Below, piece after piece: positions 3,284-32,000 of a stretch of DNA of 32,000 nucleotides. Each line of letters begins with the position of its first letter. The stretch's first letter is position 1. The notes beneath the pieces are model-generated. The model ran no database searches. It was not told the origin of the DNA and worked only from the letters and a program-made list of their open reading frames with translations. Source of the stretch: Hyphomonadaceae bacterium TMED5. GTDB lineage: Bacteria; Pseudomonadota; Alphaproteobacteria; Caulobacterales; Hyphomonadaceae. The position numbers were made by a program, and so were the translations under genes. Location of the stretch: assembly GCA_002173095.1 (NCBI GenBank), contig NHBK01000020.1, forward strand, positions 30,423 to 62,422. Direction: 5' to 3'.

Positions 3284-3308
3284 GGAGATCGCCGCAATAG
3301 CCCGCGAT

Positions 3309-4276: not shown

Positions 4277-6637
<2,361 letters not shown>

Positions 6638-13615: not shown

Positions 13616-13672
13616 GGAGTCCTCCGAAAACGAGTTTCCGGCCCCTCGCAGGGCTCGGTGCGTTCGCCGCTC

Positions 13673-13743
13673 GGGAAGGTCCACTGGACCTTCCCGTCTG
13701 CCTGTCAGGCAGACCACGGCTCACCCCGCCACGAGGGCGGGTG
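13673..13743. repeat. three tandem palindromes/hairpins in the holin-like/endolysin intergenic region
   Basis: GGGAAGGTCCA-C-TGGACCTTCCC (13673-13695, perfect), GTCTGCCTG-T-CAGGCAGAC (13696-13714, perfect), and CAC(C)CCGCC-ACGAG-GGCGGGTG (13722-13743, one bulge). Confidence 0.8.
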
Positions 13744-14818: not shown

Positions 14819-17800
14819 TCAAAAGGTCAGCGTGACGGTCTTGGGCGCGCCCCGCCCAACGAGGGCGGAGAGCTGGAGGATGCGGATGTCGAGCGTGTCG
14901 CCGGGGCCGAGTGGCGCGCCCCAATCGGCGGTCTGCTGGGCCGAGGCGTAGACCGCGCTGGTGGTGTTCGCAGACAGCACCCGCTTTACGGATGCGCCGT
15001 CGAGGATCTCCACATCGTAGGCTTCGAGCTCCTCGGCCAGCGGCACCTCGAGCCCGCCCCAGCTGTCGGCCGCGAGAGCGCGAGACCGGCGCGTCCAGCG
15101 GATTGTCAGATCGCCGGCAGTGCGCGGCCTGCGCCACGGCTGCTCGACATGGGCGACGGAGAACGGCCGCAGCCCGACGCCCGCCGGCGTGAAGGCTTGC
15201 GCGACGTAGGTCTCGTCGCTGACCGGACGGCTCTCGGGGCCGATGCGCCAGTTCCACGGGATGCCGAGATCGGCCTCAGCGATCGGCAGCGATGCGAGAC
15301 TATCGTCCAGCACCACCACGCGTGCGCCTGCCGGAGCCGGATTGCCCATCGCACCTTCGGTGCCGCGCTGACCGCGCAGGAGCCGGGTGAGCCGATACCG
15401 GCCCGGCGCCAGCAATTCGGCCGCGCCCGCCTGCACGATCTCACAGACGCCGGGCGTGGTTTCCATGGCCAGCGCGTTCGCGCCGCCGAACAGCGTCAGG
15501 TCCGTGACGCTTTCGAGGGTGCCGGTCAGCAAATCGACCACCAGCGCGTTTCCGAGATCGAAGCGCGACGTCGGCCCCGCGAAGAAGTCGGACACCAGCG
15601 CCCCGATCCGAGCGCGGCTGCCGAAGGTCGTCAGCAGCTCGAAGCCATCGGTCGAAGGACTGCGGAACACCGCCATCTCACCCGGCCAGGGAACCGCGTG
15701 CGCGGCCGCGAAGGGCCGGTGCGCGGGCTGGTCCTCGGTCAGCTGCGGCAGGTCCATCAGCAGCGCATCCGGCGCGCCGAACACCACGGCCCGCGTCAGC
15801 GACGCCGCGCGCCTCTGCGTCGGCGATGGAGACGAGCCGCAGATCGACCAGCCGCCCGTCATGGGCGAGCCGGATCGCGTCGGCCGGATCCAGCGCCAGG
15901 CGCGAGGGCGGCAGACGGAAGGCCGCCGTCTCGCGCCCGACCCACGCCTCCATCAATGCGCGGCGGCATCGCCGCTCGGCTTCCTCGGGCGGAACGGCCA
16001 TCGGGAAGGACTCGGACGCGATCCGCGTTGTGTCCACCGTGATGCGCCGCGCCTCAACGAGGGCCGCGTCGTAATCCTCGTCGGCGCGGGCGGCCTGCCA
16101 TTTCAACGCCTGCGGCAGCTCGGTCTCCTGGCCGCGCGTCAGTTCCAGCAAGTCGCCCTCACGGGCGGCCACGAGATCGTCGGCACCGAGCGTGGCGACG
16201 GAGGCCCGGCCGCGCATGATGAAACGGATCACGCCCTCGGTCTCCACGGCGTCGAAGCCGAAGTGGCGCGACAGCGTGGTGATCGAGGCGCGCGGGCTTT
16301 CGAGCGCGCCGATGGCGTAGCCCTCGACCGCGCCCCAGAGACCGGAGACGTCGATCCGGTCCTCGGGCAGCCCGGCGCGTAGGCAGAGGTGCCGGACCAG
16401 AGCCGCGAGCGACACCGCGCCGAGCCGCCCGGTCAGCCAGTGGCCGAGCCGCCAGTTCGCCCCGTCCGTCCAGACGTCGGTCAGCGCCGGAAAGAATGGG
16501 TACGGCCGCGCGTCCCAGGTCCAGGCTGCGCATTCCGGCACATGCACCATCCGGCCGCCGTAGACCGAGGATACCGGGTTGTTCGCGGCCTCGCCCCACC
16601 AGAGATACGTCGCCTCGAGATAGGCGCGCTGGATGGCGTCATCGCGCCAGCCCCGCGAGAAATGCGGCGTGAAGCTCTCCGACGACTTCGGGTCGAAGAA
16701 GACGTTGGGCTGGTTCGTGCCCCGATCGATGGCCGGACAGCCGAGCTCGGTGAACCAGACCGGCTTCGACTGCGGCGCCCATGCCGTCGGCGTCCCGGCC
16801 TCGACCCCGCCCGGGCGGTCGTGGTGCGGGTTTGACCACCAGGCGCGCAGATCCTTGTAGCGGAACACCCACGGCTTGCTGGCGGCACCATCGGTGATCG
16901 CGGTCCGGATCTGCGCTGTGCGGTCGGCGGCCGAGGCATAGAACCAGTCGTAGCCTTCGCCGCCCGCGATGTTCGCCTGCAGGTAGGCCCGGTCGTAGAT
17001 CGCGGGCCAGCCCTCGGCTGCGTCGAGATGCTCAAACCCGTCGCGCCAGTCGGAGAGCGGCATGTAGTTGTCGATCCCGACGAAATCGATCTCCGGATCG
17101 GCCCAGAGCGGGTCGAGATGGAAGAACACATCGCCGCTGCCATCGCCCGGCTGATGCCCGAAATACTCCGACCAGTCGGCCGCATAGCCGATCCTGGTGC
17201 CGGACCCGAGGATCGAGCGGATATCCGCAAGCAGGTCCCGATAGGCCTGCACCGCCGGATAGGTGCTGGCGCCCGAGCGGATCGTCGTCAGCCCTGGCAT
17301 CTCGGTACCGATCAGGAAGGCGTCTACCCCGCCCGCCGCCGCGCAGAGATGGGCGTAGTGCAGCACCATGCGGCGCAGGCCCCAGTCGCCCGATGGCCCG
17401 GTCCAGCTCACGCTCTCGCCCGAGACGCTGAAGTTGGCGGGCGTGGCCGCGCCGAACAGTGCCGCGACCTGGCTTGCGGCCGTGGCGGTCTTGTCCACCG
17501 TCCCGGCGAACCCCGCCGCGGGAGAACAGGTGATCCGCCCCCGCCAGGGGAACGCGGGCTGGCCGATCTCGGCGGCGTTGTCGCTGTAGGGGTTCGGCAG
17601 CGTGTTGCCGGGCGACACGTCCATCAGGATGAACGGGTAGAAGGTGACGCGCAGCCCGAGCGTCTTCATCTCCTGGATGGCCTGCAACACCGCGAAGTCG
17701 GACGGCGTCCCGCCATAGACGGGGCGATCCTGATCGTCGCGGCTGACGAGGAAGGCGTTGGCGCGGCTGACGCCGTTGACCGACCAGCTGATCGGCGTGG

Positions 17801-18592
17801 TCGCCTTGGCAGACACCTCGACGCCCGGCCGCACCTTGCAGGAGCCCGCCCGCAGATCGTCGCCGAACCAGGCGACGACGAGGCTGACGCTTTCGACCGC
17901 CGGGGCCATCGCCTGAAGCCGGTCGAGCGCCTCCACCATGTCGGTGGAGTCGGCCAGCGCGTTCAGGTTCTCCGCTCGCGTCGCGCCGCCATCGGTCTTG
18001 CGGATCGCCTGCGTCGCATAGGTGAACTCTCCCGAGGCCGGGATCATGGTGACGGCGCGGGTCAGCCCCTCGGCCGTGTCGGGATCGGCCAGCGGGCGAA
18101 ACACCTCGAAGGAGAATTGCGGCAGGCGGTTGCCATAGGCGGAGAGCGCGAGTTCCTCGAAGACCACATAGGCGGTGCCGCGATAGGCGGGTGTGCTGGC
18201 CGCACCCATCTTCGCCGCGATGAACGGGTCCGCGGTCTGGGTCTCGTCGCCCGGATACCAGCGCCAGGTGACGCCGGAGAGGTCCATCGGCTTACCGTCG
18301 GCCCAGATGCGCCCGATGCCGGTGATTGGCCCCTCGCACAAGGCCACCGCGAAGCTGGCATAGTACAGATACTCGGTGGTCTTGACCTTGCCGCCCCCAC
18401 CACCCTTGCCGCCGCCCTGCGTCGTGGTCTTGGTTTCCTCGCGGAAATCCGTCGCCCAGATGATGTTGCCGCCCATGCGCATCCGTCCGTAGAGCCGCGG
18501 GATGACCGCGCCTTCGGTGGCGGAGGTGATACGCAGCGTGTCGAGCCGCGCGCCCTCGATGCGCCGGCCGCGCCGAGGACAAGCGTTGCCAT
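14819..18592 (-). pseudogene. RcGTA g15-like baseplate/host-specificity 'megatron' protein, disrupted by two frame changes
   Basis: ATG 18592, 9 nt after the g14 stop, gives 'MATLVLGAAGA'. Homology then continues in the -1 frame ('IEGARLDTLRITSATEGAVIPRLYGRMRMGGNIIWATDF...') to about 15810. It then returns to the original frame ('ASLTRAVVFGAPDALLMDLPQL...TVTLTF*', ORF 14819-15862). Confidence 0.75.
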
Positions 18593-18601
18593 GGTCGGGT
18601 C

Positions 18602-19090
18602 TCAGCGTTGCGGAAACAGGAAAGCGAAGGCGATGCGCCGCCGCCAGGCTTGCGTCAGCGGTTCCTCGATCACGCCGAGCCGCTCGTAGGCGTGGAGGAA
18701 GGTGGCGGGGCCCGTCAGGATCCCGACATGCTTGGCGATCGCGCGGGCCTTCATGCGGAAGAGCACCAGTGCGCCGGGACCGGCCTCGGCGGGCGACACC
18801 TCGATCATCATTCGTCGCGCGCCCTCGGCCAGTACCTCGCGCGGGCCGGTCTCGCCCCAATCGCGGCTGTAGGGCGGGATCGGGAACGGCTCTGGACCCA
18901 CGACCTCGCGCCAGACGCCCCGGGCGAGGCCGAGGCAGTCGCAGCCGACGCCGCACAGGCTGGCCTGGTCGTGGTACGGTGTGCCGAGCCACGCGCGCGC
19001 AGCCGGAATTACTCGCTCAGGATCAGCTGCAGCCTTGGGTGCCGTCGTGGGCGCCGCCTTGCCATTCCGCGGTATTTGTGGCGTCACCAT
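18602..19090 (-). CDS. RcGTA g14-like NlpC/P60 cell-wall peptidase
   Basis: 'ARAWLGTPYHDQASLCGVGCDCLGLARGVWREVVG' (catalytic Cys) and 'KHVGIL...FLHAYE' (His). The N-terminus is about 20 aa longer than I expect for this family. Confidence 0.85.
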   Translation of the reverse strand: MVTPQIPRNGKAAPTTAPKAAADPERVIPAARAWLGTPYHDQASLCGVGCDCLGLARGVWREVVGPEPFPIPPYSRDWGETGPREVLAEGARRMMIEVSPAEAGPGALVLFRMKARAIAKHVGILTGPATFLHAYERLGVIEEPLTQAWRRRIAFAFLFPQR

Positions 19091-19123
19091 GGGTTTGACT
19101 GCCGTGCCTTGAGGGTTATCGAG

Positions 19124-20011
19124 ATGAACTTTACTGGTCTGTCCGCCTTTCCAATCACCCCGGCGACCATGGACGGGCGCGTTCAGACCGACGCGCTTGT
19201 CCGGGTGCTGGAGCGGTTGCGGCGGCCCGATCTTGGTTCGGTCGGCCTGCTAGGCAGCACCGGCACATTCGCGTATCTGACGCGCGCAGAACGACGCCGG
19301 GCGGTGTCTGTGGCGGCTGATGTGCTGGGCAGCAGTGTGTCGCTGATGGTCGGGGTCGGAGCGCTGCGCACCGACGAGGCCTGTGCATTGGCCCGCGATG
19401 CGGCTGAGGCTGGGGCAAATGCTGTGCTGCTGCCTGCGGTCAGCTACACGCCTCTGACTCAGGATGAGGCCTTCGCCCATTACAGCGCCGTTGCGACCGC
19501 AAGCGATCTGCCGCTGTGCATTTACAACAATCCCAGCACCACGCATTTCAACTTCGACGTCGCGCTAATACAGCGACTGGCGCAGGTACCCCGGATCACT
19601 GCAATCAAGATGCCGTTGCCCGCGCAAGGCAATCTCGCCAGCGATCTGGCCCGGCTGCGCAGCACGCTGCCTGCAGACTTTGCCATTGGCTACAGCGGGG
19701 ACTGGGGCTGCGCCGAGGCGCTGCTGGCCGGTGCGGATACGTGGTATAGCGTGATTGGCGGGATCCTCCCCGAGATCGCGTTGCGGCTGACTGCGGCGGC
19801 GATGGCAGGCAATGCGGCGGAGGCCCGCCGGATTGATGAAGTGCTTGCCCCGCTCTGGGCACTCTTCAAAGCCCATGGCTCGCTGCGGGTGGTTTATGCG
19901 ATGGCGCGGCAGATGGGCCTGACCGACTGCGACCCTCCCCGCCCAATCCTGCCGCTGGACGACGCGGCGTGCCGCGAAATTGCCGCGGCGACCGAACCTC
20001 TGGCTCGCTAA
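19124..20011 (+). CDS. dihydrodipicolinate synthase/N-acetylneuraminate lyase (DapA) family class I aldolase, specificity unknown
   Basis: 295 aa with 'LLGSTGTFAYLTRAERR', 'LCIYNNPSTT' and the Schiff-base Lys in 'ITAIKMP'. Opposite strand to all flanking phage genes. Confidence 0.85.
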   Translation: MNFTGLSAFPITPATMDGRVQTDALVRVLERLRRPDLGSVGLLGSTGTFAYLTRAERRRAVSVAADVLGSSVSLMVGVGALRTDEACALARDAAEAGANAVLLPAVSYTPLTQDEAFAHYSAVATASDLPLCIYNNPSTTHFNFDVALIQRLAQVPRITAIKMPLPAQGNLASDLARLRSTLPADFAIGYSGDWGCAEALLAGADTWYSVIGGILPEIALRLTAAAMAGNAAEARRIDEVLAPLWALFKAHGSLRVVYAMARQMGLTDCDPPRPILPLDDAACREIAAATEPLAR

Positions 20012-20020
20012 GCGCTCCTC

Positions 20021-20905: not shown

Positions 20906-21528
20906 CGGCGCAGTTCCACGAGCGGGATGGTGGTGATGGAGCCGAGCCGCTCGAGGTCGAGCGTCACGTCGAGCACGTCGGTGTCGAAGCGGACCGGGAC
21001 GTCGAAGACAAAGCCTGCGGTGATCGCGATGCCAGCGCCGGGCGCGGCGCTGAAGGTGACGAGGCCGGTGGTGGCGCCGACCGACCAGCCCGAGGGTTGG
21101 GGTGTGCCGTTCAGGGCGATGGTCACCGTTCCCGCGACGGGCTTGGCTATAGAGCGCGTCCAGGACTGCGCCCCGGAAGTGTAACGCTTCACCAGCTGGA
21201 ACGCGGTCGTCGCGCCGTCGCCGGTACCGATGATCTGGTCGGTGGGCCCAGGCGTGCCGGAGGGCAGACAGGACTTGTGGTCACCCCAGTCCTTGAAGCG
21301 GAACCCATGCAGGCGACCGTTGCGCGCCTCGAAGAAGGCGACGACCGCCGCCAGATCGTCCGCGCGGCGAATGCCGTAGGCGACGTCATAGCGGCGGCGC
21401 GAGTTGGCCCAGCTGGCGTTGCGCTCCTCGTCGCCCGAGGCGAGCTCGACGATCTGGGTGCGGCGCTCCGGGCCGCCGCGCGCGCCCCGGCTGATGTCAT
21501 CCGGAAACCGGACCTCGTGGAACGCCAT
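20902..21528 (-). CDS. RcGTA g12-like distal tail protein (DUF2460/TIGR02217 family)
   Basis: 'MAFHEVRFPDDISRGARGGPERRTQIVELASGDEERNASWANSRRRYDV...FFEARNGRLHGFRFKDW'. The start overlaps the tape-measure stop (TGATG). Confidence 0.85.
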   Translation of the reverse strand: MAFHEVRFPDDISRGARGGPERRTQIVELASGDEERNASWANSRRRYDVAYGIRRADDLAAVVAFFEARNGRLHGFRFKDWGDHKSCLPSGTPGPTDQIIGTGDGATTAFQLVKRYTSGAQSWTRSIAKPVAGTVTIALNGTPQPSGWSVGATTGLVTFSAAPGAGIAITAGFVFDVPVRFDTDVLDVTLDLERLGSITTIPLVELRR

Positions 21529-23840
21529 CACATGCCCCTCCGCCCGAGCGACACGGCGCGGGCGATGTCGGCCGCGATCTGCGTGCGCGATTGCCGGAAG
21601 CTCTCGGCGTCGCGGGCCATAATGGTGACGTTGATCCCGCCGCCCGCGCCGTAGCTCTGCGCCTCGCGCCGCGACAGCACCCTCTCGCCGCGCTGCAGGA
21701 TCGCGGGCACCTCGTCGTGTCGAAGTCCGGCCATGCCGCCGCCATGCATCCGGGGCGCGGCGGCGAAGGCCATCGCCGGGACCATGCGCGAGGGTCCGGC
21801 CGATCCGACCATCCCGCCCGCATGCAGGACGTTGGCGAAGATGCCGCCAGCACCGGAGAACACGCCGGAGAGCGCATTGGCGATCGGCCCGAGGATGAAG
21901 CGCCGCGCCGCGAGCTGGGCGAGATCGGCCAGCAGCGAGGTGACGAGGTCGCGGAAGTTCAGCTTCCCGGTCTTCACGAACTGGCCCACCGCGTTCTCGG
22001 CCGACTGGAACGCGCCGACGAGGCTCTGGCCGATATCGCCGCCGATGTCGCGCGCCTTGCTGGCATAGACGGAGAGCGCCGTTGTGACCGCCCGCCAACC
22101 GGTGACGGCCGCGCCGGTGGCCTCGGTCAGCGCATCGGCACTGGCCTCGTCGGTCCCGCGCACCGCATCGCGCAGCGCCTGCCAGCTTTCCAGTGGCGCG
22201 CGGGCCCCTTCGGCCAGATCGCGCGCGGCGCCCCGGTAGACATTCGCGGACTCTAGCGCCCGGGCGGCTGCCTCGGGCAGGCCAAGATCGGGCGCGGTCA
22301 GCGGGTTGTCCTCGAAGGCCCGGTCGAACGCCGCCTGCGCGGCGGTGGTCGCTGCCGTCGCCGCGCCCTCGAAGCGGTTCTCGATCTCGCCTAGGTCGAG
22401 GTCGGGCACCAGCGAGATGCGCCGCTCCGATCCGAGGGCTTCGAGCCCCTGGTTGATCCCGCCGATGAAGCCGTTGATGCGCGAGACCACGCCGTTCAGC
22501 ATCGCCTCGACACCGTCGACCAGGCTGTTGGCCGCCTGGAACGCCAGATCGCCAATGGCGGCGGGCAGCAGACCCCAGATCGCCTTGATCGCCTCGTAGG
22601 CCCCCTCGAACGTGTTCGCCGCCGTGTTGCCGAAGGCAACGACGCTCTCGATGGCGCTCTGCATGCCCGACGCGGCGTCGGCCTTCAGGTCGAAGAACAT
22701 CGCCGTGGCGGCGGCGCCCGCCGCAGCCGCGCCCATCCTGATCCGCTCCCAGACCTCGACCGCGAGGTCCTTCAAGGGCGACATCGCCTCGCCGAACCCA
22801 CCCGCACCTGAGACGAGGCGGGTGAACTGGTAGACAAGCTCTCCCGCGCCAACGACCAGCGCCCCGATCCCGGTGCGAATCAGCGCTCCGCGCAGCACGA
22901 CCAGCGCCGTGGCGAGGCCACGGACCGAGAGCGCGGCAGCGGCCATGCCGGCGATCCAACGTCCCGCGAGGAACGCGGCGAAGGTGGCGGCATAGGTCGT
23001 CAGGCGGCCGATGTTGTCGAAGAGGCCGCGGATCGCGATGCCGAGCGGCCCGGTGCGGCTGGCGACCGCCGCCATGGCGTTGGCGACGGCTTCCAGCGCA
23101 GGCGCTGCTGCGACAGCTAGTTGGTTCGACAGCCCGCGCCAGATCAGCCCGAGCCGGGAGATCGCGTCGTTCGTGCGTTCGATCTGGTCGGCATCCTGCT
23201 CCGAGACGACTACCCCGAAGGCGAGGACGTCCTCCGTCGCCTGGCGCAGCGTCGCGGTGTCGATCCGGCTCATGGCGATGGAGCCTTCCTCGCCGAAGAG
23301 CTGACCCGCGACGGCGGCGCGCTCTGCGGCAGGCACGAAGTTCTCGATGGCGGCGTTGATCGCACCCACGCGCTGGTCCAGAGGCAGGGCGATCAGCTCG
23401 TTGGCCGACAGCCCGAGCCGGTCGAGCGCGTCAGCGGCAGGGCCGGTCCCGGCCGCCGCTTGGCTGAGACGGCGCGTCAGATCCTTCGTTGCCTGCTCGA
23501 TCCCGGACATCGACACGCCCGCCAGCTCGCCCGCGCGCTCCAGCGTCTGGATCGAGGCGACGGTGGTGCCGAGCGACTGCGCGAGCTTGGCCTGCGCATC
23601 GACCGTTTGCAGGCCGGAGCGGATCATCGCCACGCCAGCGGCGGCAGCGGCCGCTACGGCGGCGGCGGATGCGACAGCAACACGCCGCGAGAAGGCTGCG
23701 AGCCTCGCATTGGCCGCCTCCATCTCGCGGCTCAGCCGTCCGAAGCCGCGGGATCCGGCTTCGCCCACGCCTTCCAGTTCCGCGCGCACCTGCCGTCCGC
23801 CCACGGCCGCGAGGCGGACGCTGACCCTCTTCTCAGCCAT
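21528..23840 (-). CDS. tail tape measure protein (770 aa)
   Basis: Long Ala/Gly-rich helical protein in the canonical position after the chaperone pair. N-terminal 'KLAQSLGTTVASIQTLERAGELAGVS...ATKDLTRRL' is typical of TMP N-domains. Confidence 0.85.
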   Translation of the reverse strand: MAEKRVSVRLAAVGGRQVRAELEGVGEAGSRGFGRLSREMEAANARLAAFSRRVAVASAAAVAAAAAAGVAMIRSGLQTVDAQAKLAQSLGTTVASIQTLERAGELAGVSMSGIEQATKDLTRRLSQAAAGTGPAADALDRLGLSANELIALPLDQRVGAINAAIENFVPAAERAAVAGQLFGEEGSIAMSRIDTATLRQATEDVLAFGVVVSEQDADQIERTNDAISRLGLIWRGLSNQLAVAAAPALEAVANAMAAVASRTGPLGIAIRGLFDNIGRLTTYAATFAAFLAGRWIAGMAAAALSVRGLATALVVLRGALIRTGIGALVVGAGELVYQFTRLVSGAGGFGEAMSPLKDLAVEVWERIRMGAAAAGAAATAMFFDLKADAASGMQSAIESVVAFGNTAANTFEGAYEAIKAIWGLLPAAIGDLAFQAANSLVDGVEAMLNGVVSRINGFIGGINQGLEALGSERRISLVPDLDLGEIENRFEGAATAATTAAQAAFDRAFEDNPLTAPDLGLPEAAARALESANVYRGAARDLAEGARAPLESWQALRDAVRGTDEASADALTEATGAAVTGWRAVTTALSVYASKARDIGGDIGQSLVGAFQSAENAVGQFVKTGKLNFRDLVTSLLADLAQLAARRFILGPIANALSGVFSGAGGIFANVLHAGGMVGSAGPSRMVPAMAFAAAPRMHGGGMAGLRHDEVPAILQRGERVLSRREAQSYGAGGGINVTIMARDAESFRQSRTQIAADIARAVSLGRRGM

Positions 23841-24500
23841 GGGACTGATCCATCTGTTCGTTGAGTTTGGTGACCATCACCGCCTCGATGACGGGCAGCA
23901 GTTCGGCCATGGCGAGCGGCGGCACGCCGAGCGCGCCACCGAGCGCCAGCGCCGCCGACATGTCCCAGCCGATCACCGCGCCGGGCAGGACACGCAGCTG
24001 ACCGCCGAGGCGCCCGACGAGGTCCCAGACCTGCCAACCTTCATGCGTCAGGGGCCGGTTCAGCCGCGCCGGGCAGTCTTCGCAGATTTGCGCGCAGGCT
24101 TCGCAGTAGCGGTCGCCCCCGCCGAAGGACCATTCGGCGAGAGCGCGGAGGCGTTTTTTTCCTGTTCCAGCAGCAGGCCCTTGGAGACGTAGGTCAGCTG
24201 GAACGCCTCGAAGATCGGCCAGACGTCGAGCAGCGCGTCGATGGCCTCGGGGCTCGGGTCGATGGGCTTGCCGTCGGCATCGCCGATGCCCTCCCAGCCG
24301 AGCACAGCCCGTCGCGCCAGCGCCTTGGCGAAGGCGACGGCGCGCTCCTCGTCGGAAGCCTCCTCGGGCACCGCCTCGACGGCGGGGTCGCTGCGCGTCG
24401 CGACCATCAGGGCGGTCGTCAGCGGGCGCAGTTGCACCCGGACGCCGGGGGCGAGGTCATGCCAGCGCGGCGCGTTGGTCAGGTCGAGCGTCAGCATCAA
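23833..24500 (-). CDS. tail assembly chaperone -1 frameshift fusion product (GT-like)
   Basis: After a slip at A_AAA_AAC the -1 frame stays open for about 108 codons ('KRLRALAEWSFGGGDRYCEACAQICEDCPARL...AELLPVIEAVMVTKLNEQMDQSHG*'). It stops at 23833-23835, overlapping the TMP ATG (23840). Confidence 0.65.
24060..24500 (-). CDS. tail assembly chaperone (G-like, zero-frame product)
   Basis: 146 aa, acidic, positioned between the tail tube and TMP. Contains the slippery run 94 nt before its stop. Confidence 0.7.
   Translation of the reverse strand: MMLTLDLTNAPRWHDLAPGVRVQLRPLTTALMVATRSDPAVEAVPEEASDEERAVAFAKALARRAVLGWEGIGDADGKPIDPSPEAIDALLDVWPIFEAFQLTYVSKGLLLEQEKNASALSPNGPSAGATATAKPARKSAKTARRG
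24154..24160 (-). promoter_or_regulatory. programmed -1 ribosomal frameshift slippery heptamer A_AAA_AAC (A7 run)
   Basis: Plus strand T7 at 24154-24160. On the coding strand 'cag gaA AAA AAC gcc' is in X_XXY_YYZ phase with the chaperone zero frame. Confidence 0.65.
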
Positions 24501-25438
24501 TACGTCTCCACGTCATTCACGAGGGTGGCGGTGCACATCCGGCCGACGACGCTGTCGCGCGCGGCCTGCCAGTCGAATGTCGCCTGGACGCCCTGCGGCC
24601 CGGAAATCTCGATCCGTGGACGCGGCAGGTAGACGGCGTGCACGGTGAAGGAGAAGCTTTCGCCTGAAGGCAGGACGTAGGCGAATTCCATCTCGCAGGC
24701 CTCGCCGTTGATCGCCTGCGTCACCAGCGTCTGGTCGGCGAAGCGCACCTCGATCCGGCCCGTCAGCGCGGCAATGGATGGATCCGCGCCATCGATGCGG
24801 CCGTCCGAGCGGATGGTCTCGATCCGGTCGAGGTTGTTGGCGTAGGTGATCTCGGCCGAGACCACATTGCCGAGGGCGGTGCCGTTCCGGGTGATCGCCC
24901 CGTTGAAATGGCCGAAGCGCTTCAACTCCAGTGCGGCGGGCGTTCCGGCACTGGTCGTGGTGCCGACCGTCTCGCCCTGCGCCACCAGCCGCGCGGTCGC
25001 GGTGAGCAGGCCCGAGCGCTGCATCTGCCAGGTGATCTGGTCGAGCACGCAGCCCGAGTACATCGCATAGCGGGGCACCTCGGGCATGCCGGTCTCGATC
25101 GACATCGAGGGCAACGTCCAGGACCCCGACTGAAATTCGTGGCTGTACGGGGCCTCCGCGCCCGTGGTCGTGGGCGCGCCGAAGGCTGCCTTCAGCCAGA
25201 AGCCGAACGCCTCGGCGTCCAGCGGCACGACGACGTCGCCGTCGGCCGTCACGGCGTCCTTGATCGGCGCTAGCGGATCGCGGCCGTAGCCGAGAAGCTC
25301 CGAATTCAGCAGCGGCTGCTCCGCGCCGAGCGACGTGCTGGCGAAGGGCATGCGGGTGAAGCCGCTGACGGGCGGCGTTCCATAGGTCGTCTCGAACGCA
25401 AGCGCCATCAGCGCTCGCGCCCCTTGGGCTCGTGCCAT
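24497..25438 (-). CDS. major tail (tube) protein
   Basis: 313 aa and beta-rich, immediately upstream of the chaperone pair with an ATGA overlap. Called on position and composition, not on a motif I can name. Confidence 0.65.
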   Translation of the reverse strand: MARAQGARALMALAFETTYGTPPVSGFTRMPFASTSLGAEQPLLNSELLGYGRDPLAPIKDAVTADGDVVVPLDAEAFGFWLKAAFGAPTTTGAEAPYSHEFQSGSWTLPSMSIETGMPEVPRYAMYSGCVLDQITWQMQRSGLLTATARLVAQGETVGTTTSAGTPAALELKRFGHFNGAITRNGTALGNVVSAEITYANNLDRIETIRSDGRIDGADPSIAALTGRIEVRFADQTLVTQAINGEACEMEFAYVLPSGESFSFTVHAVYLPRPRIEISGPQGVQATFDWQAARDSVVGRMCTATLVNDVETY

Positions 25439-25462
25439 GTTCGTCTCCTGTGGTCGGTTGGG

Positions 25463-25879
25463 TCAGGCCAGCGGGTCGGCCGTGGAATAGTGCAGCACGA
25501 CCGGGATAACGGCGGCCTTCAGACTCGCCGCGCCCTCGACCGGCAGATCGACCGGGCGCGGGGCTTCGGCCTCGACCCAGTCGCAGAACCCGCCCAGCGT
25601 CCGGTCGGCGGCGAGCGCTGCGCCGATGCTGGCGGTCAGCGTGTCAAAGGCGGCGTCGCGATCGGCACCCTGAACGACCGCCTCGATCTCGGCTCGGTGC
25701 TGGTAGTGATAGCGCAGCGGCGACAGCGTGACTTCGGGCGCACCTGGTTCGCCATCGCGCAGGATCATCAGGCCCTCGACCGGCATGCGCTCGGGCAGCA
25801 CGTCCCCGCGCAGAGCGGTGGCGGGCAGCGCCGAGAGCCGCGCGTGCAGCGCGACGAGGATGGTTTCGCGAGGTGTCAT
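25463..25879 (-). CDS. tail completion/terminator-like protein (DUF3168-like)
   Basis: 138 aa starting 'MTPRETILVALHARLSALPATALRGDVLP...'. Size, position directly upstream of the tube gene and overall pattern resemble DUF3168 tail-completion proteins. The rest of ORF 25463-27172 is antisense to mer genes. Confidence 0.55.
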   Translation of the reverse strand: MTPRETILVALHARLSALPATALRGDVLPERMPVEGLMILRDGEPGAPEVTLSPLRYHYQHRAEIEAVVQGADRDAAFDTLTASIGAALAADRTLGGFCDWVEAEAPRPVDLPVEGAASLKAAVIPVVLHYSTADPLA

Positions 25880-26301
25880 GGGTCGGCCGAGTTGGAAATC
25901 GCGTCGAGCACCGGACAATCGGGGACTTCGGCGCCCGAACACCTGGATGCAGTTGTAGCGAGGACGGATTCGATACGCCGAAGATCCGCGATCCTCGCGC
26001 GGACATCGGCAAGGTGCCGCTCCGTCCGTTCCTTGACCTCGGCGCAGGTCGGCGCGGCGCCGTCGCCGAGCCCCATCAGCCCGCGGATGTCCTCCATCGA
26101 GAACCCGAGTTCGCGGGCGCGCAGGATGAAGCGGAGGCGTGTGGCGTGTGCGGCGGAATAGACCCGGTAGCCGGCGTCCGTGCGGGGCGGGTCGGGCAGC
26201 AGGCCGGTCTTCTCGTAATAGCGGATCGTCTCGATGTTGCAGCCGGTCGCCCGGGCCAGGTCGCCGCGTGTGAAGCCGCTCTCGCGCTCGTGATCGGTCA
26301 T
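25876..26301 (-). CDS. merR: MerR Hg(II)-responsive transcriptional regulator
   Basis: Start at 'MTDHERESGFTRGDLARATGCNIETIRYYEKTGLL' (MerR HTH). The three metal-binding Cys lie in 'PTCAEV' and 'RCSGAEVPDCPVL'. Divergent from merT. Confidence 0.9.
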   Translation of the reverse strand: MTDHERESGFTRGDLARATGCNIETIRYYEKTGLLPDPPRTDAGYRVYSAAHATRLRFILRARELGFSMEDIRGLMGLGDGAAPTCAEVKERTERHLADVRARIADLRRIESVLATTASRCSGAEVPDCPVLDAISNSADP

Positions 26302-26315
26302 GGGCAAGTTTCCTC

Positions 26316-26346
26316 TTGAGCCTGTAGTTGCTACAGACCCTACACC
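26316..26346 (+). promoter_or_regulatory. mer operator/promoter (PmerT) with 19-bp spacer
   Basis: -35 TTGAGC (26316-26321), a 19-nt spacer containing the perfect dyad CTGTAG-TTG-CTACAG (26322-26336), and -10-like TACACC (26341-26346). The over-long spacer with a central dyad is the MerR-family hallmark. Confidence 0.75.
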
Positions 26347-26377
26347 CATCGTCAATCACAGACGAGAGGTGCGCGAC

Positions 26378-26767
26378 ATGGCGCTGACAGACGACAGAAC
26401 GGACAGCACGGGCGCGGATCGCCCCGCCCGAAAGGGCTGGCTCGCGGCGGGCGGTGTGGTGGGCGCCTTTCTCGCCTCGGCCTGCTGCATCGGGCCGCTG
26501 GTGCTTCTGACTCTCGGCATCTCGGGCGCCTGGATCGGCAACCTGACGGCTCTGGAGCCTTACAAGCCGATCTTCGCCGTGATCGCGCTCGGCTTCATCG
26601 CGGCGGGTTTCTGGCAGGTCTATTTCCGCAAGCCAACCGTCTGCGAACCCGGTTCCTACTGCGCAAGGCCAGCATCGGCGCGCATCACCAAGTCGGCTCT
26701 CTGGGCCTCCCTGATCCTCGTTCTCGCAGCCCTCACCATCGACTGGTGGGCCCCGCTTCTCTACTGA
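26378..26767 (+). CDS. merT: MerT mercuric ion transporter
   Basis: 'FLASACCIGPLVLLTLGISGAWIGNLTALEPYKPIF' (TM1 CC pair) and the cytoplasmic pair 'VCEPGSYC'. Collinear with Tn21 MerT as I recall it. Confidence 0.9.
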   Translation: MALTDDRTDSTGADRPARKGWLAAGGVVGAFLASACCIGPLVLLTLGISGAWIGNLTALEPYKPIFAVIALGFIAAGFWQVYFRKPTVCEPGSYCARPASARITKSALWASLILVLAALTIDWWAPLLY

Positions 26768-26785
26768 CCCCGAAAGGACATCCAC

Positions 26786-27091
26786 ATGAAGAAGATCCTT
26801 GCACTCGCCTTGTTCGGCCTGACCGCCGTTGTGCCGATCACCGCCATCCCTGTTGCCGCGCAGACCGTCGCCGCCGAGCAGACCGTCACCTTCGCGGTGG
26901 ACAACATGACCTGCGCGCTCTGCCCAGTCACCGTGAAGCGTGCGATGGAGGGCGTCGCGGGCGTGCGCGCCGTCGAGATCGACTTCGATGCCCGCACCGC
27001 CACGGTGATCTTCGACACCGCCGCGACGAGCGCCGACGCCATCGCGACCGCGTCGGCCAATGCAGGCTACCCGGCGCGTGTCGCGGGCTGA
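26786..27091 (+). CDS. merP: MerP periplasmic mercury-binding protein
   Basis: Signal peptide plus HMA motif 'NMTCALCPVTVKRAM'. SD AAAGGA upstream. Confidence 0.9.
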   Translation: MKKILALALFGLTAVVPITAIPVAAQTVAAEQTVTFAVDNMTCALCPVTVKRAMEGVAGVRAVEIDFDARTATVIFDTAATSADAIATASANAGYPARVAG

Positions 27092-27095
27092 CGAG

Positions 27096-27329
27096 ATGAC
27101 CGAGCAGTCCGACCGCAAGCTGATCGCGACAGGGATCGTCGGCACCGTCATCGCGGCGCTCTGCTGCTTCACTCCGGTGCTGGTGGTGCTTCTGGGTGCC
27201 GTGGGCCTGTCGGCCTGGCTGGGTTGGCTCGACTACGTTCTGCTGCCCGCGCTCGCCTTTTTCGTCGCGCTGACCGTGTACGCGGTCTGGAGACGGCAGC
27301 GGCGCCAGACCACTCGAACGGATGGATGA
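27096..27329 (+). CDS. merF: MerF two-TM mercury transporter (lacks the C-terminal CC pair)
   Basis: 'ALCCFTPVLVVLLGAVGLSAWLGWLDYVLLPALAFFVALTVYA' matches the MerF core. Ends '...WRRQRRQTTRTDG' with no second Cys pair. Confidence 0.8.
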   Translation: MTEQSDRKLIATGIVGTVIAALCCFTPVLVVLLGAVGLSAWLGWLDYVLLPALAFFVALTVYAVWRRQRRQTTRTDG

Positions 27330-28758
27330 CTTGATGAAAGACGATTGCTGCGCGCCCAAGGGCGATTTCGACCTTGCCGTGATCGGCGCCGGATCGGCCG
27401 GGTTCTCGGCCGCGATCACCGCCGCCGAGGGAGGCAAGCGCGTCGCGCTGATCGGCCATGGCACCATCGGCGGGACCTGCGTGAACGTGGGCTGTGTGCC
27501 CTCCAAGACGATGATCCGGGCCGCGGAAGCCCTGCACGGTGCGCAGACAGCACATCGGTTCCCGGGCCTGAACAGCGAGGCGCAGGTCGCCGACTGGTCG
27601 GCGCTGATTGCGGCCAAGGACGATCTTGTCGCGACACTGCGCCAGAAGAAGTACGCCGATCTGCTGCCGGGCTACGGCGGTGTGACCTATCTCGACGAGG
27701 GTCCGGCGCGTCTCGTCCTCGGCGGGGTCGAGGTCGGCGGGCGCAGGATCACGGCTCCCAAGGTGATCGTCGCGACCGGTGGCCGACCCGCCGTGCCCGA
27801 CATCCCTGGGATCCAGGACGCACCAACGCTCGACAGCACGTCGCTGCTGGAGCTGGACCGGTTGCCCGAAAGCCTGATCTTCCTCGGCGGCGGCTACATC
27901 GGCGTGGAGCTGGCGCAGATGATGGCGCGGATGGGCACCCGCGTCACCATTGTCTGCCGCTCGCGCCTGCTGCCGCGCACAGAGCCGGAGGTGTCCCGGG
28001 CGCTGACGGAGACGCTGCGCGCCGAGGGCGTCGCGGTTGTCGATGGCGCGACCTACGACGCCGCACGGCGCGACGGGGCCCGTGCGGTCCTGACGGTGAC
28101 GGTGGACGGCGCAGACCGCGATCTGACGGCCGACCGCCTCGTCCTGACGACGGGACGCGCAGCCAACACCGAGGGGCTGGGCCTCGCGGAGATGGGCGTC
28201 GAGACCGACGCGCGTGGCGCGATCCGGGTGGGCGACGACATGCAGACCACGAAGGCCGGCATCTTCGCGGCGGGCGATGTGACCGACCGCGACCAGTTCG
28301 TCTACATGGCCGCCTATGGCGCCAAGCTCGCGTCCCGCAACGCCGTTCTGGGCGGGGCGGAGCGCTACGACAACGCCGCGATGCCGTGGGTGGTGTTCAC
28401 CGATCCGCAGGTCGCCGGCGTCGGGCTGACCGAGGCGCAGGCGCGCGCCGCGGGTCATGACGTCAAGACCAGTGTGCTGACGCTCGACAACGTGCCCCGC
28501 GCGCTCGCCGCCCGCGACACGCGCGGCCTGATCAAGCTCGTCGCGGACCGGGCGACCGACCGCCTCCTGGGCGGCGTGATCATGGCGCCGGAGGGAGCCG
28601 ACAGTGTCCAGACGCTCGCCATGGCGCTCAAGTTCGGCATGACGACAAAGGCGCTCGGCGAGACGATCTTCCCCTATCTGACCACGGTAGAGGGGCTGAA
28701 GCTCGCCGCGCAGACCTTCGACAAGGATGTCGCGAAGCTGTCGTGCTGCGCGGGGTAA
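27322..28758 (+). CDS. merA: mercuric reductase MerA, core enzyme without N-terminal HMA (NmerA) domain
   Basis: 'AVIGAGSAGFSAA' (FAD), redox-active 'GGTCVNVGCVPSK', and C-terminal 'KLSCCAG'. Alternative start at ATG 27334. The N-terminal tail is 'MDDLMKDDCCAPKG'. Confidence 0.92.
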   Translation: MDDLMKDDCCAPKGDFDLAVIGAGSAGFSAAITAAEGGKRVALIGHGTIGGTCVNVGCVPSKTMIRAAEALHGAQTAHRFPGLNSEAQVADWSALIAAKDDLVATLRQKKYADLLPGYGGVTYLDEGPARLVLGGVEVGGRRITAPKVIVATGGRPAVPDIPGIQDAPTLDSTSLLELDRLPESLIFLGGGYIGVELAQMMARMGTRVTIVCRSRLLPRTEPEVSRALTETLRAEGVAVVDGATYDAARRDGARAVLTVTVDGADRDLTADRLVLTTGRAANTEGLGLAEMGVETDARGAIRVGDDMQTTKAGIFAAGDVTDRDQFVYMAAYGAKLASRNAVLGGAERYDNAAMPWVVFTDPQVAGVGLTEAQARAAGHDVKTSVLTLDNVPRALAARDTRGLIKLVADRATDRLLGGVIMAPEGADSVQTLAMALKFGMTTKALGETIFPYLTTVEGLKLAAQTFDKDVAKLSCCAG

Positions 28759-28808
28759 CCCGAGCCGTCGGTTTCGTGGCTGCCGAGCAAGATTGCGCAT
28801 CGATGCGA

Positions 28809-29438
28809 TCACAACCTACCCCCCACCCAGTTCGCCACGATCAGCCCCGGCACGCTGTCCAACGCCCGGTCTGCATCCCGCGCCAGATCCAGCCGCTTCG
28901 GCAGCTTGACCTGCGGCACCAGCAGGAAGATCGGCGCAGTGACCTTTCCGCGCCCGGTCTTCGACCGCGACACCACCGCCTGGCCTTTCGTGTTCAGCCG
29001 CCCCTCGGCGACCAGCAGGCTGGGGCCCGTCCGGCGATAGACGAAACGCAGGCGGAGGCCGCGTCGCCGCTCCCATTCACCGGGGGTGATCCGGCCGCCG
29101 CGCAGGGATTTGCCCGCCGCGGGCAGCGGGATCGCCAGCCAGAACCCGTTCTTCGATCGGATCAGCGGCCCGGTGTCATGCGCACCGACGATTACCGGCG
29201 CCTTCGACCAGACCAGCGCCGCAGCCTCAAGGCTCTCGCCCGACCTCGGGAAGTTCTGGCTCCGGATCGAGTTGGCGAGCCGTGTACCAAGCCCCGCGCC
29301 GGTGATCTGCAACCGCCACGCCGTCTTCAGCCCAGTCCCGGCCTCGCGAATGGCGGCGGTGACGGCCCGTTCACCCGCCGCGACCTCGGCCGCCATCATC
29401 GCGACGATGTCGGGATCGATGTCGAGCTTCAGTTTCAC
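28809..29438 (-). CDS. phage neck/head-completion protein (DUF6441- or HK97 gp10-like, tentative)
   Basis: 209 aa with an ATGA overlap to the upstream head-tail joining gene. Positioned between head and tail modules. The family assignment is from memory of similar prophage proteins only. Confidence 0.5.
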   Translation of the reverse strand: MKLKLDIDPDIVAMMAAEVAAGERAVTAAIREAGTGLKTAWRLQITGAGLGTRLANSIRSQNFPRSGESLEAAALVWSKAPVIVGAHDTGPLIRSKNGFWLAIPLPAAGKSLRGGRITPGEWERRRGLRLRFVYRRTGPSLLVAEGRLNTKGQAVVSRSKTGRGKVTAPIFLLVPQVKLPKRLDLARDADRALDSVPGLIVANWVGGRL

Positions 29439-29746
29439 GCGGGCCTCAGGTCGACGGTCCAGACCAGCCGCTCGCGGTCGCGGACCGGCTCGCCCTGTAT
29501 GAGGAAGGCCTCGCCCTCGATCTCGATGCGGTCGCCGGGACGCGGGTTCGCCACCTCTGCGGCGCGCAGGTCGATCCGGGTGGTCTCGGACCAGAGCCGC
29601 GTATCGCCGAAGTCCGTGATCGCATCGGCACGCCGGGCGACCACGCGCACCAGCACGGGTGTACCGCCGTCGGCGATGTAGACCGCGTCCCGGCCGATGT
29701 TCGGATCGGCGAAGAGCGCGCCGATGGCGGCGGCGAAGGCCGACAT
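29435..29746 (-). CDS. head-tail joining/head-closure protein (tentative)
   Basis: 103 aa: 'MSAFAAAIGALFADP...RPGDRIEIEGEAFLIQGEPVRDRERLVWTVDL'. Small beta-barrel-like pattern in the canonical position after the decoration gene. Confidence 0.5.
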   Translation of the reverse strand: MSAFAAAIGALFADPNIGRDAVYIADGGTPVLVRVVARRADAITDFGDTRLWSETTRIDLRAAEVANPRPGDRIEIEGEAFLIQGEPVRDRERLVWTVDLRPA

Positions 29747-30081
29747 CAGAACGTCGCGTTCAGGCGCACCCGGCCGATGGTGTCGCCGGCGCCGCTCGCC
29801 ACCGCCTCGACGGCCGCGCCGATGAGGGTGTTGTCGGTCGCGACGGTCGTGGTGCGCTTGTTGGTGTCGTCCCAATAGACCTTGGCGCCAACCGTCCACG
29901 CCTGGGAGCCGACCTTGGTGATGTCGAACACGCCGACGAGCGCGGTCTCGACGGGCTCGCCAATGGCGGCGGCACCCGCGGCGATGCCGAAGATGGAGCC
30001 GACGAGCAGGCCATCGCCGGAGGCGACGGCATAGGGCGCGGTCAGGGTGATGGTGTTGCCGGGCTGAACGTAGTTTTTCAT
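29746..30081 (-). CDS. DUF2190-family capsid decoration/cement-like protein
   Basis: 'MKNYVQPGNTITLTAPYAVASGDGLLVGSIFGIAAGAAAIGEPVETALVGVFDITK...AKVYWDD' matches the DUF2190 pattern, directly downstream of the capsid gene. Confidence 0.72.
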   Translation of the reverse strand: MKNYVQPGNTITLTAPYAVASGDGLLVGSIFGIAAGAAAIGEPVETALVGVFDITKVGSQAWTVGAKVYWDDTNKRTTTVATDNTLIGAAVEAVASGAGDTIGRVRLNATF

Positions 30082-30094
30082 GGGGAGGATCCTT

Positions 30095-30128
30095 TGGGAA
30101 AGACAAAGGGCGGCCCATGAGGACCGCC
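30095..30128 (-). terminator. intrinsic terminator/attenuator-like hairpin after the capsid gene
   Basis: On the minus-strand transcript: GGGCGGUCC-UCAU-GGGCCGCCC (9-bp stem with one G.U), followed by UUUGUCUUUCCC. On the plus strand the same position is a C/A mismatch, so the stem is better in the phage sense. Confidence 0.45.
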
Positions 30129-30158
30129 CGTGTGTCAGGGTTCAGCATGGGGTGCGGG

Positions 30159-32000
30159 TTACGCGCCTGGGTTCTTGTAGAGGCCGCGCCAGTCGATCGC
30201 CTTGGCGCCGAAGTCGAGGCGGCACTTGATCTCGACGCCGTCGACGTCGAAGCCGTTGCGGGTCTCGATGTAGGCGCCCTGCTGGCCCTCGAGATAGGCG
30301 TACTCGATGGTGTCGATCTGGTTCGGGCTGGCCGCCAGATACCAGGCGGTCTCGCTGGCGGCGTCGAGGCGCGGCTCGCTGATCGGCGCGAGGGTCCGGA
30401 TCGACTGCGGTACCACGCTGGACGTCGCGGCGGGCACGAGGTTCTGGGCGACCAGCTGCTCGGCCTTCAGTTCGAGCGAGGCGGGCACGATCAGGAAGGC
30501 GGGCCGGACGTTCAGCACCGTCTTCTTGTCGAGGCCCGTCTGCTTGGCCATCGCGGCGCGGGCCGCGCCGACGCTGCTGACATCGAGCGCCGCGCCGGTG
30601 CCTGCGAGGTTCTTGTGGGTTGTGTGGAAGAGCGCGTTGCCGTCGGCCATCGCCGGGTTGGCGGTGATGATCCCCCAGACCACATCCGACTCCAGCTGGG
30701 CGATGGAGTTGCCGTACATCGCCGGGATCCGGGTGAAGGCATCGAGATCGTCGTTGATCAGCGTCTGGCGGGTGATGGCGACCACCCGGCCATAGGTCTT
30801 GACCTTGTAGCTCTCCTTGCTCTCACCCAGCGTCCCGCGCTTGAACTCGCCGCTCTCGCCCACTTCCAGCAGCTGGGGCGCTTCGCCGAGCTGCACCCGG
30901 TGCATGGCCTTGAAGTCGGTGGCGAGCACCTGGCGGCAGAACAGCATGAAGGTGCGGGGATAGGCCTCGTAGGCCTGCCGGAGGGTCTTGTTGGTGACCG
31001 CCGACAGGATCTCGGGGAAGTCCGAGGTCGAGTGCAGCGCGCGCGTCGCCACCTCGTCGCGCGACAGACCTCGCGTGTTGACCCCGGCATTGCCGAGGCT
31101 TTCGCGGGCCAGTTCCAGCAGCGTCATGCCGCGATACTGGCGGGCGGCGTCCTCCAGCTGGAACAGCGTCGGGCTGTAGCGATGCAGGAGCGCGTTCGCC
31201 ACGGCATCGCGGCGGGTGATGCGCTCGTCCCGGCCGCCGAGCGGGACGGAGACATGGGGGAATGTCCTAGTCTCGTCCGACTTGGCCGCGACCTGGTCGA
31301 GGATCAGGCGGCGGGACTCGTCGACGCTGATGCCGCGCTTGACCAGATCCTCGGCGAAGCTGCGCTCGAGGTTCAGGCGGCCCGCCAGATCGTAGATGGT
31401 CGAGACGCGATCGCGCTCGGCCACGCGAGCGCGCGTGGCGACGGCTTCGGTGTCGGGCGCGGGAGCTGCCTGCGTCTTCGGCTGGCTGCGGGTTTCGACT
31501 GCGGCGCCCTTCGGGTCGGGCGCAGCCGCATTCGGCTCGGTCATGGGGGTGTCCTCGGTTTCGACCGGCTCGGTCGGCTGGGTGGTGGCGGGGGTTGCGG
31601 CGTCGCGCGCCGGGGTCTGGGTCTTGTCCGTCATCGGGAATGCTCCTTGCGGTGTGGGGGCGTCCCGGCGGTGAAGGACGCAGTCGTGAAGGGGATGCTG
31701 GGCGCGGAAGCCCGCGGCGGGGTCGGCGCCGACCGCGACAGCGGAGACCTCGAACGGCGTCCAGTCCACCGCGCGCCAGAGCTCGCGGGCGGCCTCGGGC
31801 TTCGAGACCTCGAAGCGGTGGACCTGGTAGCCGATGGAGACCGCGCGGATGTGGCCCGCCTGGATGTCGCGCCAGATCGGCTCGACGTCGGCGCGCTCGC
31901 TGATCCGCACCAGCGCGATTCCGCGGCCGTTCTCGATCCGGGCCGAACCCGGCACGACCGAACCGATCACCGCATCCAGCGTGTCGAGCTCGTGCACCTT
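30159..32000 (-). CDS. prohead protease / major capsid protein fusion (5' end beyond window)
   Basis: The frame is open to the window edge. The N-terminal part shown ('HIRAVSIGYQVHRFEV...WTPFEVSAVAVGADPAAGFR') resembles the C-terminus of HK97-type prohead proteases. A Pro/Thr/Ala linker and a ~400-aa capsid-like domain ending '...DFGAKAIDWRGLYKNPGA' follow. Confidence 0.8.
   Translation of the reverse strand, partial: KVHELDTLDAVIGSVVPGSARIENGRGIALVRISERADVEPIWRDIQAGHIRAVSIGYQVHRFEVSKPEAARELWRAVDWTPFEVSAVAVGADPAAGFRAQHPLHDCVLHRRDAPTPQGAFPMTDKTQTPARDAATPATTQPTEPVETEDTPMTEPNAAAPDPKGAAVETRSQPKTQAAPAPDTEAVATRARVAERDRVSTIYDLAGRLNLERSFAEDLVKRGISVDESRRLILDQVAAKSDETRTFPHVSVPLGGRDERITRRDAVANALLHRYSPTLFQLEDAARQYRGMTLLELARESLGNAGVNTRGLSRDEVATRALHSTSDFPEILSAVTNKTLRQAYEAYPRTFMLFCRQVLATDFKAMHRVQLGEAPQLLEVGESGEFKRGTLGESKESYKVKTYGRVVAITRQTLINDDLDAFTRIPAMYGNSIAQLESDVVWGIITANPAMADGNALFHTTHKNLAGTGAALDVSSVGAARAAMAKQTGLDKKTVLNVRPAFLIVPASLELKAEQLVAQNLVPAATSSVVPQSIRTLAPISEPRLDAASETAWYLAASPNQIDTIEYAYLEGQQGAYIETRNGFDVDGVEIKCRLDFGAKAIDWRGLYKNPGA

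Follow-up and report, generated by a model that had tools for sequence, protein, structure and literature searches.

A mercury-resistance operon as head-on cargo in the virion operon of an alphaproteobacterial prophage, with merR overlapping the tail-terminator gene

The window analysed here, a 32,000-nucleotide stretch of contig NHBK01000020.1 (positions 30,423 to 62,422) from Hyphomonadaceae bacterium TMED5 with a G+C content of 67%, contains a mercury-resistance (mer) operon embedded between two virion genes of a prophage. The virion and lysis module of this siphovirus prophage runs along the minus strand from position 32000 down to ~12.9 kb (Table 1). Upstream on the same strand, outside the window, lie the genes for the portal, the large terminase and probably the small terminase, followed by a divergent early region, and this gene layout is consistent with one long late operon extending from the small terminase to the endolysin. 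The prophage belongs to a family of siphovirus prophages that is widespread among alphaproteobacteria and related to the Rhodobacter phage RcKvothe. Between the DUF6441 neck gene and the tail-terminator gene of the module sit a minus-strand merR and, divergent from it, merT, merP, merF and merA, a narrow-spectrum mer operon predicted to confer resistance to Hg(II). In the profile searches, MerT and MerP fall below the NCBIfam equivalog cut-offs.

The region between merR and merT carries a promoter, PmerT, whose −35 and −10 hexamers are separated by a 19-nt spacer holding the dyad CTGTAG-N3-CTACAG, the predicted MerR operator. This element (26316-26346) had been picked out in the original prediction, and it is kept in Ruegeria, Celeribacter and other mer loci, as well as in phage-borne copies. 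Because it is conserved in plasmid- and phage-borne homologues, we do not regard it as a chance match but predict a real MerR-type element. A putative promoter for merR itself, PmerR, would overlap the operator on the opposite strand; the closest homologues share its −35 hexamer, TTGAC(G), and a consensus scan of the PmerR region reported no sigma-70 site. The gene strands and coordinates agree with the earlier claim that merTPFA faces the capsid and neck genes: transcribed from the plus strand (26378-28758), it points at the DUF6441, head-tail attachment, decoration and capsid genes, all on the minus strand.

At its other end, merR runs directly into the tail-terminator gene. The minus-strand junction reads ...GAC CCA TGA; ATG ACA CCT..., the merR stop and the tail-terminator start overlapping at 25879-25876 just as originally described, and both frames translate cleanly, into a MerR of 141 residues and a downstream protein of 138 residues. 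ATG 25879 is the genuine tail-terminator start, since the phrog_4204 match spans the whole length of the protein. Neither a consensus scan nor folding found a terminator at the junction; the overlap leaves no room for one, and therefore any merR transcript would enter the tail gene. Pairing of the tail-terminator leader with the anti-Shine-Dalgarno sequence is weak in the window (−1.7 kcal/mol), and the junction RNA is less structured than shuffled sequences (z +1.8). About 13.4 kb of genes, co-oriented except for a single DapA-like gene on the plus strand, lead from the tail terminator to the endolysin, matching the ~13 kb noted before. At the opposite end of the cassette, the spacer between the merA and DUF6441 stops shows no terminator-like site in a consensus scan and no T-run, and on neither strand does its fold exceed shuffles in stability (z −0.5 and −0.2). 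Rfam contains no known RNA element matching 23000-32000.

Table 1 Features of the mer cassette and the surrounding virion and lysis module (coordinates in the window).
Feature	Position	Strand	Details
Capsid-protease fusion	30159-32000	-	profile search
Head decoration	29746-30081	-	profile search
Head-tail attachment gene	between decoration and DUF6441	-	profile search
DUF6441 neck/connector gene	28809-29438	-	Pfam DUF6441 3e-46; phrog_6367 4e-80; left border of cargo slot
merA-DUF6441 spacer	28759-28808		50 bp, merA stop to DUF6441 stop
Cargo insert	25889-28804		~2.9 kb; backbone homology to L030 (a locus with other cargo) stops at 25888 and resumes at 28805
merA	27322-28758	+	478 residues; Pfam Pyr_redox_2/dim; NCBIfam TIGR02053 524.5 bits (cut-off 454.45), full-length alignment
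merF	27096-27329	+	Pfam Transport_MerF 90.8 bits; NCBIfam NF033565 111.9 (cut-off 50)
merP	26786-27091	+	Pfam HMA domain
merT	26378-26767	+	Pfam MerT 105.5 bits (cut-off 32.9)
PmerT	26316-26346	+	-35 TTGAGC 26316-26321; 19-nt spacer 26322-26340; -10 TACACC 26341-26346; read from sequence
MerR operator dyad	26322-26327, 26331-26336		CTGTAG, TTG, CTACAG; within PmerT spacer; read from sequence
Putative PmerR	26355-26350, 26333-26328	-	-35 TTGACG, 16-nt spacer, -10 TAGCAA; overlaps operator; inferred
merR Shine-Dalgarno	26310-26315	-	GAGGAA, 8 nt before ATG; duplex -6.0 kcal/mol; conserved in homologues
merR	25876-26301	-	141 residues; MerR-family sensor, Cys86/Cys121/Cys129; Pfam MerR-DNA-bind, MerR_1, MerR
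Last six merR codons (SNSADP)	25880-25897	-	fast-evolving linker to tail-terminator ATG
ATGA stop/start overlap	25876-25879	-	merR TGA 25878-25876, tail-terminator ATG 25879-25877; plus strand 'tcat'
Tail terminator (tail completion)	25463-25879	-	138 residues; phrog_4204 1.1e-41 over residues 1-137
Tube	24497-25438	-	
Chaperone	between tube and tape measure	-	
Tape measure	21528-23840	-	
Distal tail genes, large phrog_4271 tail protein, fibre	beyond tape measure, before endolysin	-	
M15 endolysin	12941-13717	-	
Host LysR gene	11563-12453		after endolysin

We compared the locus with relatives found by searching species-representative genomes with the tail-terminator protein (the best 80 of at least 385 matches; taxonomic labels on the metagenome-assembled genomes may be unreliable). 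Wherever both flanks are present on one locus, a variable gap of 0.4-4.1 kb runs precisely from the DUF6441 stop to the tail-terminator ATG. These gaps hold 98 open reading frames, which fall into 78 protein clusters, including transporters (ChrA chromate, CDF cation efflux and ACR3/SBF-type), acetyltransferases, hydrolases and defence-type genes (HEPN, PIN, a pPIWI-associated nuclease, RmrA-like, QueC and PD-T4-5). The G+C content of the gaps is 0.45-0.68 against 0.70 in the flanks; most non-mer cargo lies at 0.45-0.63, and the mer insert, at 0.68, is not deviant in composition. The mer cassette is a swappable cargo in the hypervariable slot between DUF6441 and the tail terminator. Among 65 distinct cargos, 32 are oriented entirely against the late operon, 26 lie entirely in its direction and 7 combine both, and a head-on cargo is nothing unusual in these phages. 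Across the family, no conservation is seen upstream of the tail-terminator ATG, and late transcription would therefore have to cross the mer genes in antisense, as the original prediction had it.

Metal-related cargo recurs in the slot (L035, L037, L040, L080 and other loci in our numbering), with a ~750-residue ChrA in four genomes and a CDF transporter in two, and a HEPN RiboL-PSP gene is among the defence genes sharing the slot with it. In L041 (Maliponia aquimaris, 1932-6000), the mer cassette forms a composite cargo together with an antisense ACR3/SBF-like transporter that comes after it. The same transporter is the sole cargo in L067 and L078, with the same transporter/tail-terminator junction. 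Since L041 joins the mer cassette with the L067/L078 transporter, cargos can stack in the slot.

Next to the tail terminator, the position of merR is strictly maintained. We searched IMG/VR by MerR similarity (at least 78% identity), an approach that carries no bias towards the junction, and in 21 of 21 contigs the tail terminator is immediately downstream of merR. When these contigs, other loci and the window were pooled and collapsed to distinct sequences, 11 junction sequences remained; ATGA is invariant in all of them and lies 38 nt from the last Cys codon in every variant. The last five to six MerR residues vary freely among phage copies, with seven tails of equal length (SNSADP, SNPADP, SNPADR, SRSANP, AAPHNQ, SRSSEP and TSSFVR). 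The ratio of non-synonymous to synonymous substitution rates (dN/dS) is 0.11-0.18 for merR, merA and the tail terminator, with dS up to 0.5-0.7, and 0.13-0.18 for merR when set against diverged phage-borne copies. All three genes are intact and under purifying selection.

The overlap has a counterpart in phages without cargo. In the more distant, cargo-less RcKvothe and 'Nostoc' phage Nsp-JY21, the DUF6441 homologue overlaps the tail terminator by four bases, and the tail terminator starts with the same ATGAC on the stop of its co-oriented upstream partner. That partner is the neighbouring virion gene, whereas here it is a horizontally acquired transcription factor gene. Co-oriented cargo other than mer always stops 3-528 bp short of the tail-terminator ATG. 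Median anti-Shine-Dalgarno pairing before the tail terminator is −1.7 kcal/mol in mer-linked loci versus −3.25 kcal/mol in non-mer loci (Mann-Whitney p=0.003, an overstated value as the copies are related). Shine-Dalgarno strength alone was set aside as proof of coupling, the −1.7 kcal/mol in the window being weak but not unique in the family. Comparison of these sequences suggests that merR most likely took over the ancestral translational-coupling position before the tail terminator. The earlier idea that merR is wired into the phage operon thus stands for the physical and, most likely, translational link, which is kept as ATGA in every related mer-phage sampled; L041, where another cargo gene lies between merR and the tail terminator, departs from it.

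A sub-lineage of mer-carrying loci (L087, L092, L093, L100, L116 and L117), also represented among the 21 IMG/VR contigs, has lost merT, merP and merF, leaving a ~34-codon merT remnant, and has kept merR, the promoter, merA and the ATGA overlap of merR with the tail terminator.

The closest non-phage relatives of the cassette are mer operons on Roseobacteraceae plasmids, with 88-92% nucleotide identity that is confined to 25891-28765. Ruegeria sp. SCSIO 43209 plasmid unnamed4 (NZ_CP065363), Celeribacter indicus pP73C (NZ_CP004396) and Roseovarius pTHAF9_a show the same mer gene order, and Roseobacteraceae plasmids have a near-identical operator-promoter, TTGAGC-CTGTAG-N3-CTACAG-...-TACACC. On the plasmids, merR ends three codons earlier (MerR of 138 residues, 3 shorter) and is followed by unrelated DNA, with merR homology ending at ~25891-25895, whereas here merR extends onto the phage tail gene. 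The cassette here is trimmed to ~2.9 kb inside the virion operon, to within ~40 bp of its coding ends. Insertion as a Tn3/Tn21-type transposon was rejected, there being no terminal repeats, target duplication, transposase or resolvase; the insert borders have no flanking direct or inverted repeats, and there is no transposase reading frame within 25889-28804. We also considered a merR tail that is a chimera with phage DNA, since plasmid homology ends at ~25891; the merR tail of L041 is equally long, yet does not adjoin the tail terminator.

Spread of the cassette among prophages appears to be recent. A 3.5-kb block comprising DUF6441 and the mer genes (25876-29438) is 100% identical in three other loci (L009, L011 and L012), on contigs labelled Amaricoccus, Stappia and Paracoccus aminovorans HPD-2, and the capsid, tail-terminator and tube genes of these contigs are only 76-96% identical to the window. 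Such a pattern points to transfer of the block between related prophage backbones by homologous recombination. With an identical block in prophages assigned to different genera, phages would be a route for the spread of mer beside plasmids and transposons.

Two of the plasmids, Celeribacter pP73C (L090) and Roseovarius pTHAF9_a (L132), contain the motif ATGACAC 8 nt past the merR stop, in the position and frame of the tail-terminator start ATGACAC in the window. It could be microhomology used in the capture, a phage-derived remnant or chance.

We propose, with a probability of roughly 0.6, that the mer cassette is lysogenic-conversion cargo in which merR replaced the neck gene as the partner of the tail terminator, and that the head-on orientation of merTPFA is a by-product. 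In the lysogen, MerR would act on the 19-bp-spacer promoter, with Hg(II) switching on merTPFA and protecting the host, and weak, autoregulated merR transcripts would unavoidably run on into the tail terminator. During lytic growth, a late transcript starting upstream of the terminase genes would cross merA to merT as ~2.5 kb of untranslated antisense RNA. Ribosomes would then reload at the strong merR Shine-Dalgarno sequence, and the tail terminator would be made by termination-reinitiation at ATGA. Because merR sits in the coupling position and the layout of mer is divergent, merTPFA would be forced into antisense, a by-product and no regulatory device; that half of all slot cargos are antisense suggests that the phage family tolerates such an arrangement. 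The antisense late RNA across mer, checked for Rho loading, has no enrichment of C over G relative to the coding parts and gave no hint of antitermination.

Several observations weigh against this proposal. The MerR assignment is itself imperfect, its best NCBIfam match (TIGR02051, 125.5 bits) being below the cut-off of 150.85 with CueR close behind at 122.1. The transporter separating merR from the tail terminator in L041 indicates that the phage can do without the overlap, and weak Shine-Dalgarno sequences before the tail terminator in some non-mer relatives mean that coupling may not be needed. At the junction, the ATG itself cannot change, which leaves only the length of the reading frame and the A of TGA open to variation. 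In addition, all mer-carrying copies probably descend from one capture, so that conservation of the junction is partly inheritance. Lastly, the large tail gene is split in this genome, and late expression may be moot here.

Some of these points are shared by an explanation through neutral compaction, in which the overlap is an inherited scar of tight illegitimate recombination and the tail terminator initiates independently of merR translation. Trimming of the cassette almost to its coding ends is what a packaging limit would be expected to produce, and a single origin, likely given that both junctions are common to all copies, would account for their uniformity; the weak Shine-Dalgarno sequences of several non-mer relatives and the working of L041 without the overlap fit as well. 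A scar of this kind sits less easily with seven tail sequences that keep identical length, frame and the A of TGA, with the same overlap to the neck gene in cargo-less relatives, with the 3-528 bp spacer left by co-oriented non-mer cargo, and with the on average stronger Shine-Dalgarno-like pairing of non-mer loci. We consider neutral compaction somewhat unlikely.

The original prediction went further and saw a possible metal-responsive coupling, in which Hg(II)-induced firing of PmerT would hinder late transcription head-on and depress expression of the tail and lysis genes, PmerR would feed MerR-controlled transcription into the tail genes, and prophage induction would produce antisense RNA against mer. 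Applied to the clade as a whole, virion production would be linked to mercury: strong firing of PmerT would reduce how much late transcription reads on into the 13 kb of tail and lysis genes, and late transcription would in turn silence mer through antisense RNA and overproduce MerR. The locus does place an inducible promoter convergently within a long operon, lacks terminators on both sides of the cassette and has a merR that overlaps the tail gene, an arrangement stable over a dS of ~0.5 or more in many contigs. Transcriptional interference induced from PmerT is physically plausible, and antisense RNA over mer in lytic growth would follow directly if late read-through occurs. An evolved coupling is nevertheless not supported. 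The slot is a generic cargo hot spot in which half of the unrelated cargos are antisense as well, and the orientation needs no special function; its uniformity in all mer copies is consistent with a single capture rather than repeated selection. In the classical Tn21/Tn501 system, MerR represses PmerR irrespective of Hg(II), and read-through from PmerR would accordingly be weak and not mercury-induced. The absence of a link between merR and the tail terminator in L041 also speaks against such control, which we regard as unlikely, both for this locus and for the clade.

That the prophage is merely a decaying remnant from which the host retains a useful mer operon, the wiring being without consequence, is very improbable: the phrog_4271 gene and the fibre region are frame-broken and L087 lacks head genes within 6 kb, but the 24-kb virion module, which extends from terminase to endolysin, is otherwise intact in the window, the cassette and its junction recur in numerous contigs whose flanking virion genes are intact and under purifying selection, and the frame breaks may be draft-assembly errors.

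These breaks affect two places. The large phrog_4271 tail protein (1309 positions) is broken across two frames at ~15.7-15.9 kb, of which the longer, 15678-18992, encodes positions 43-979 and the other, 14819-15952, positions 977-1308; in the longer reading frame, the first ~140 codons are without homology. The fibre region is not one frame: in-frame stops interrupt 14084-14811 twice, and the DUF2793-like 5' portion and the 3' portion of the region are in different reading frames. Either a defective prophage copy or errors in the draft assembly may be responsible.

The mer paradigm of Tn21 and Tn501 has merR divergent from the structural genes and a dyad operator in a 19-bp spacer between −35 and −10. 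The locus described here resembles it in the divergent merR, the dyad in a 19-bp spacer and a similar spacing of the three MerR cysteines. It differs in having no transposase, resolvase, terminal repeats, merD or merE, in carrying merF in place of merC, in a MerA without the N-terminal HMA domain, and in a MerR that falls short of the equivalog cut-off.

The cassette can also be compared with phage morons. Like them, it brings genes of benefit to the host between virion genes that are adjacent in relatives, the cargo differs from phage to phage, and metal resistance is recurrent. Morons in the classical sense are autonomous, each with a promoter and a terminator of its own. The mer cassette has its own promoter, as predicted from the conserved MerR-type element, but has no insulating terminator at either end, and its merR is fused by the stop/start overlap to an essential virion gene. 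New here, then, is a terminator-less moron whose regulator gene appears to be coupled to a virion gene.

In Paracoccus, ArsB was reported to be inserted in opposite orientation among the structural genes of prophages vB_PcoS_PD6 and vB_PsaS_PD20, and no mer operon is among the prophage metal genes listed there (Decewicz et al. 2019, PMC6536676). The file of vB_PamS_PD3 from P. aminovorans HPD-2, a prophage of the same study, has no mer annotation. When we searched the literature for prophage-borne mer operons in Rhodobacterales or Paracoccus, we found no publication that describes this arrangement. Two further phage sequences with mer genes have backbones unlike this prophage: MT835550.1, an unverified scaffold of faecal origin filed as 'Bacteriophage sp.', whose merR-merTPA is ~69% identical, and OQ595196.1, Salmonella phage SJ1, which carries merTPCA.

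Temperate phages of Rhodobacterales and related bacteria carry a full regulated mer operon with them within their virion operon, in a slot that gathers metal-resistance and anti-phage genes and is a place to look for new defence systems. The takeover of a virion gene's translational-coupling position by a cargo gene, as proposed for merR, would be a rare example. The locus offers a compact natural system for studying the tolerance of long phage operons to inducible promoters that converge on them and to 2.5 kb of antisense RNA that is not translated, and it bears on the question of whether late transcription in this family is antiterminated. If the mercury link were true, nature would have provided an instance of phage yield placed under environmental control by a cargo.

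Elsewhere in the same genome, a different contig carries a second merR/merT locus (L002, G000:C10:2275-5419), whose MerR is 51% identical to the one described here and whose operator is much alike (TTGCTT-CTGTAGCGGCTACAG). Cross-regulation between the two MerR proteins is possible.

The plus-strand DapA/DHDPS-family gene mentioned above (19124-20011) is antisense between two distal tail genes (region 19091-20020), and the sequences flanking this site are contiguous in relatives L011 and L041. By this comparison the DapA site is a second cargo slot, filled only in this prophage. Directly after the capsid stop and before the decoration gene, a GC-rich hairpin with a T-run (30108-30129, minus strand) is the sole terminator-like site found by the consensus scan on the late strand within 24-30.5 kb; it might act as a partial terminator and thereby raise the level of capsid mRNA.

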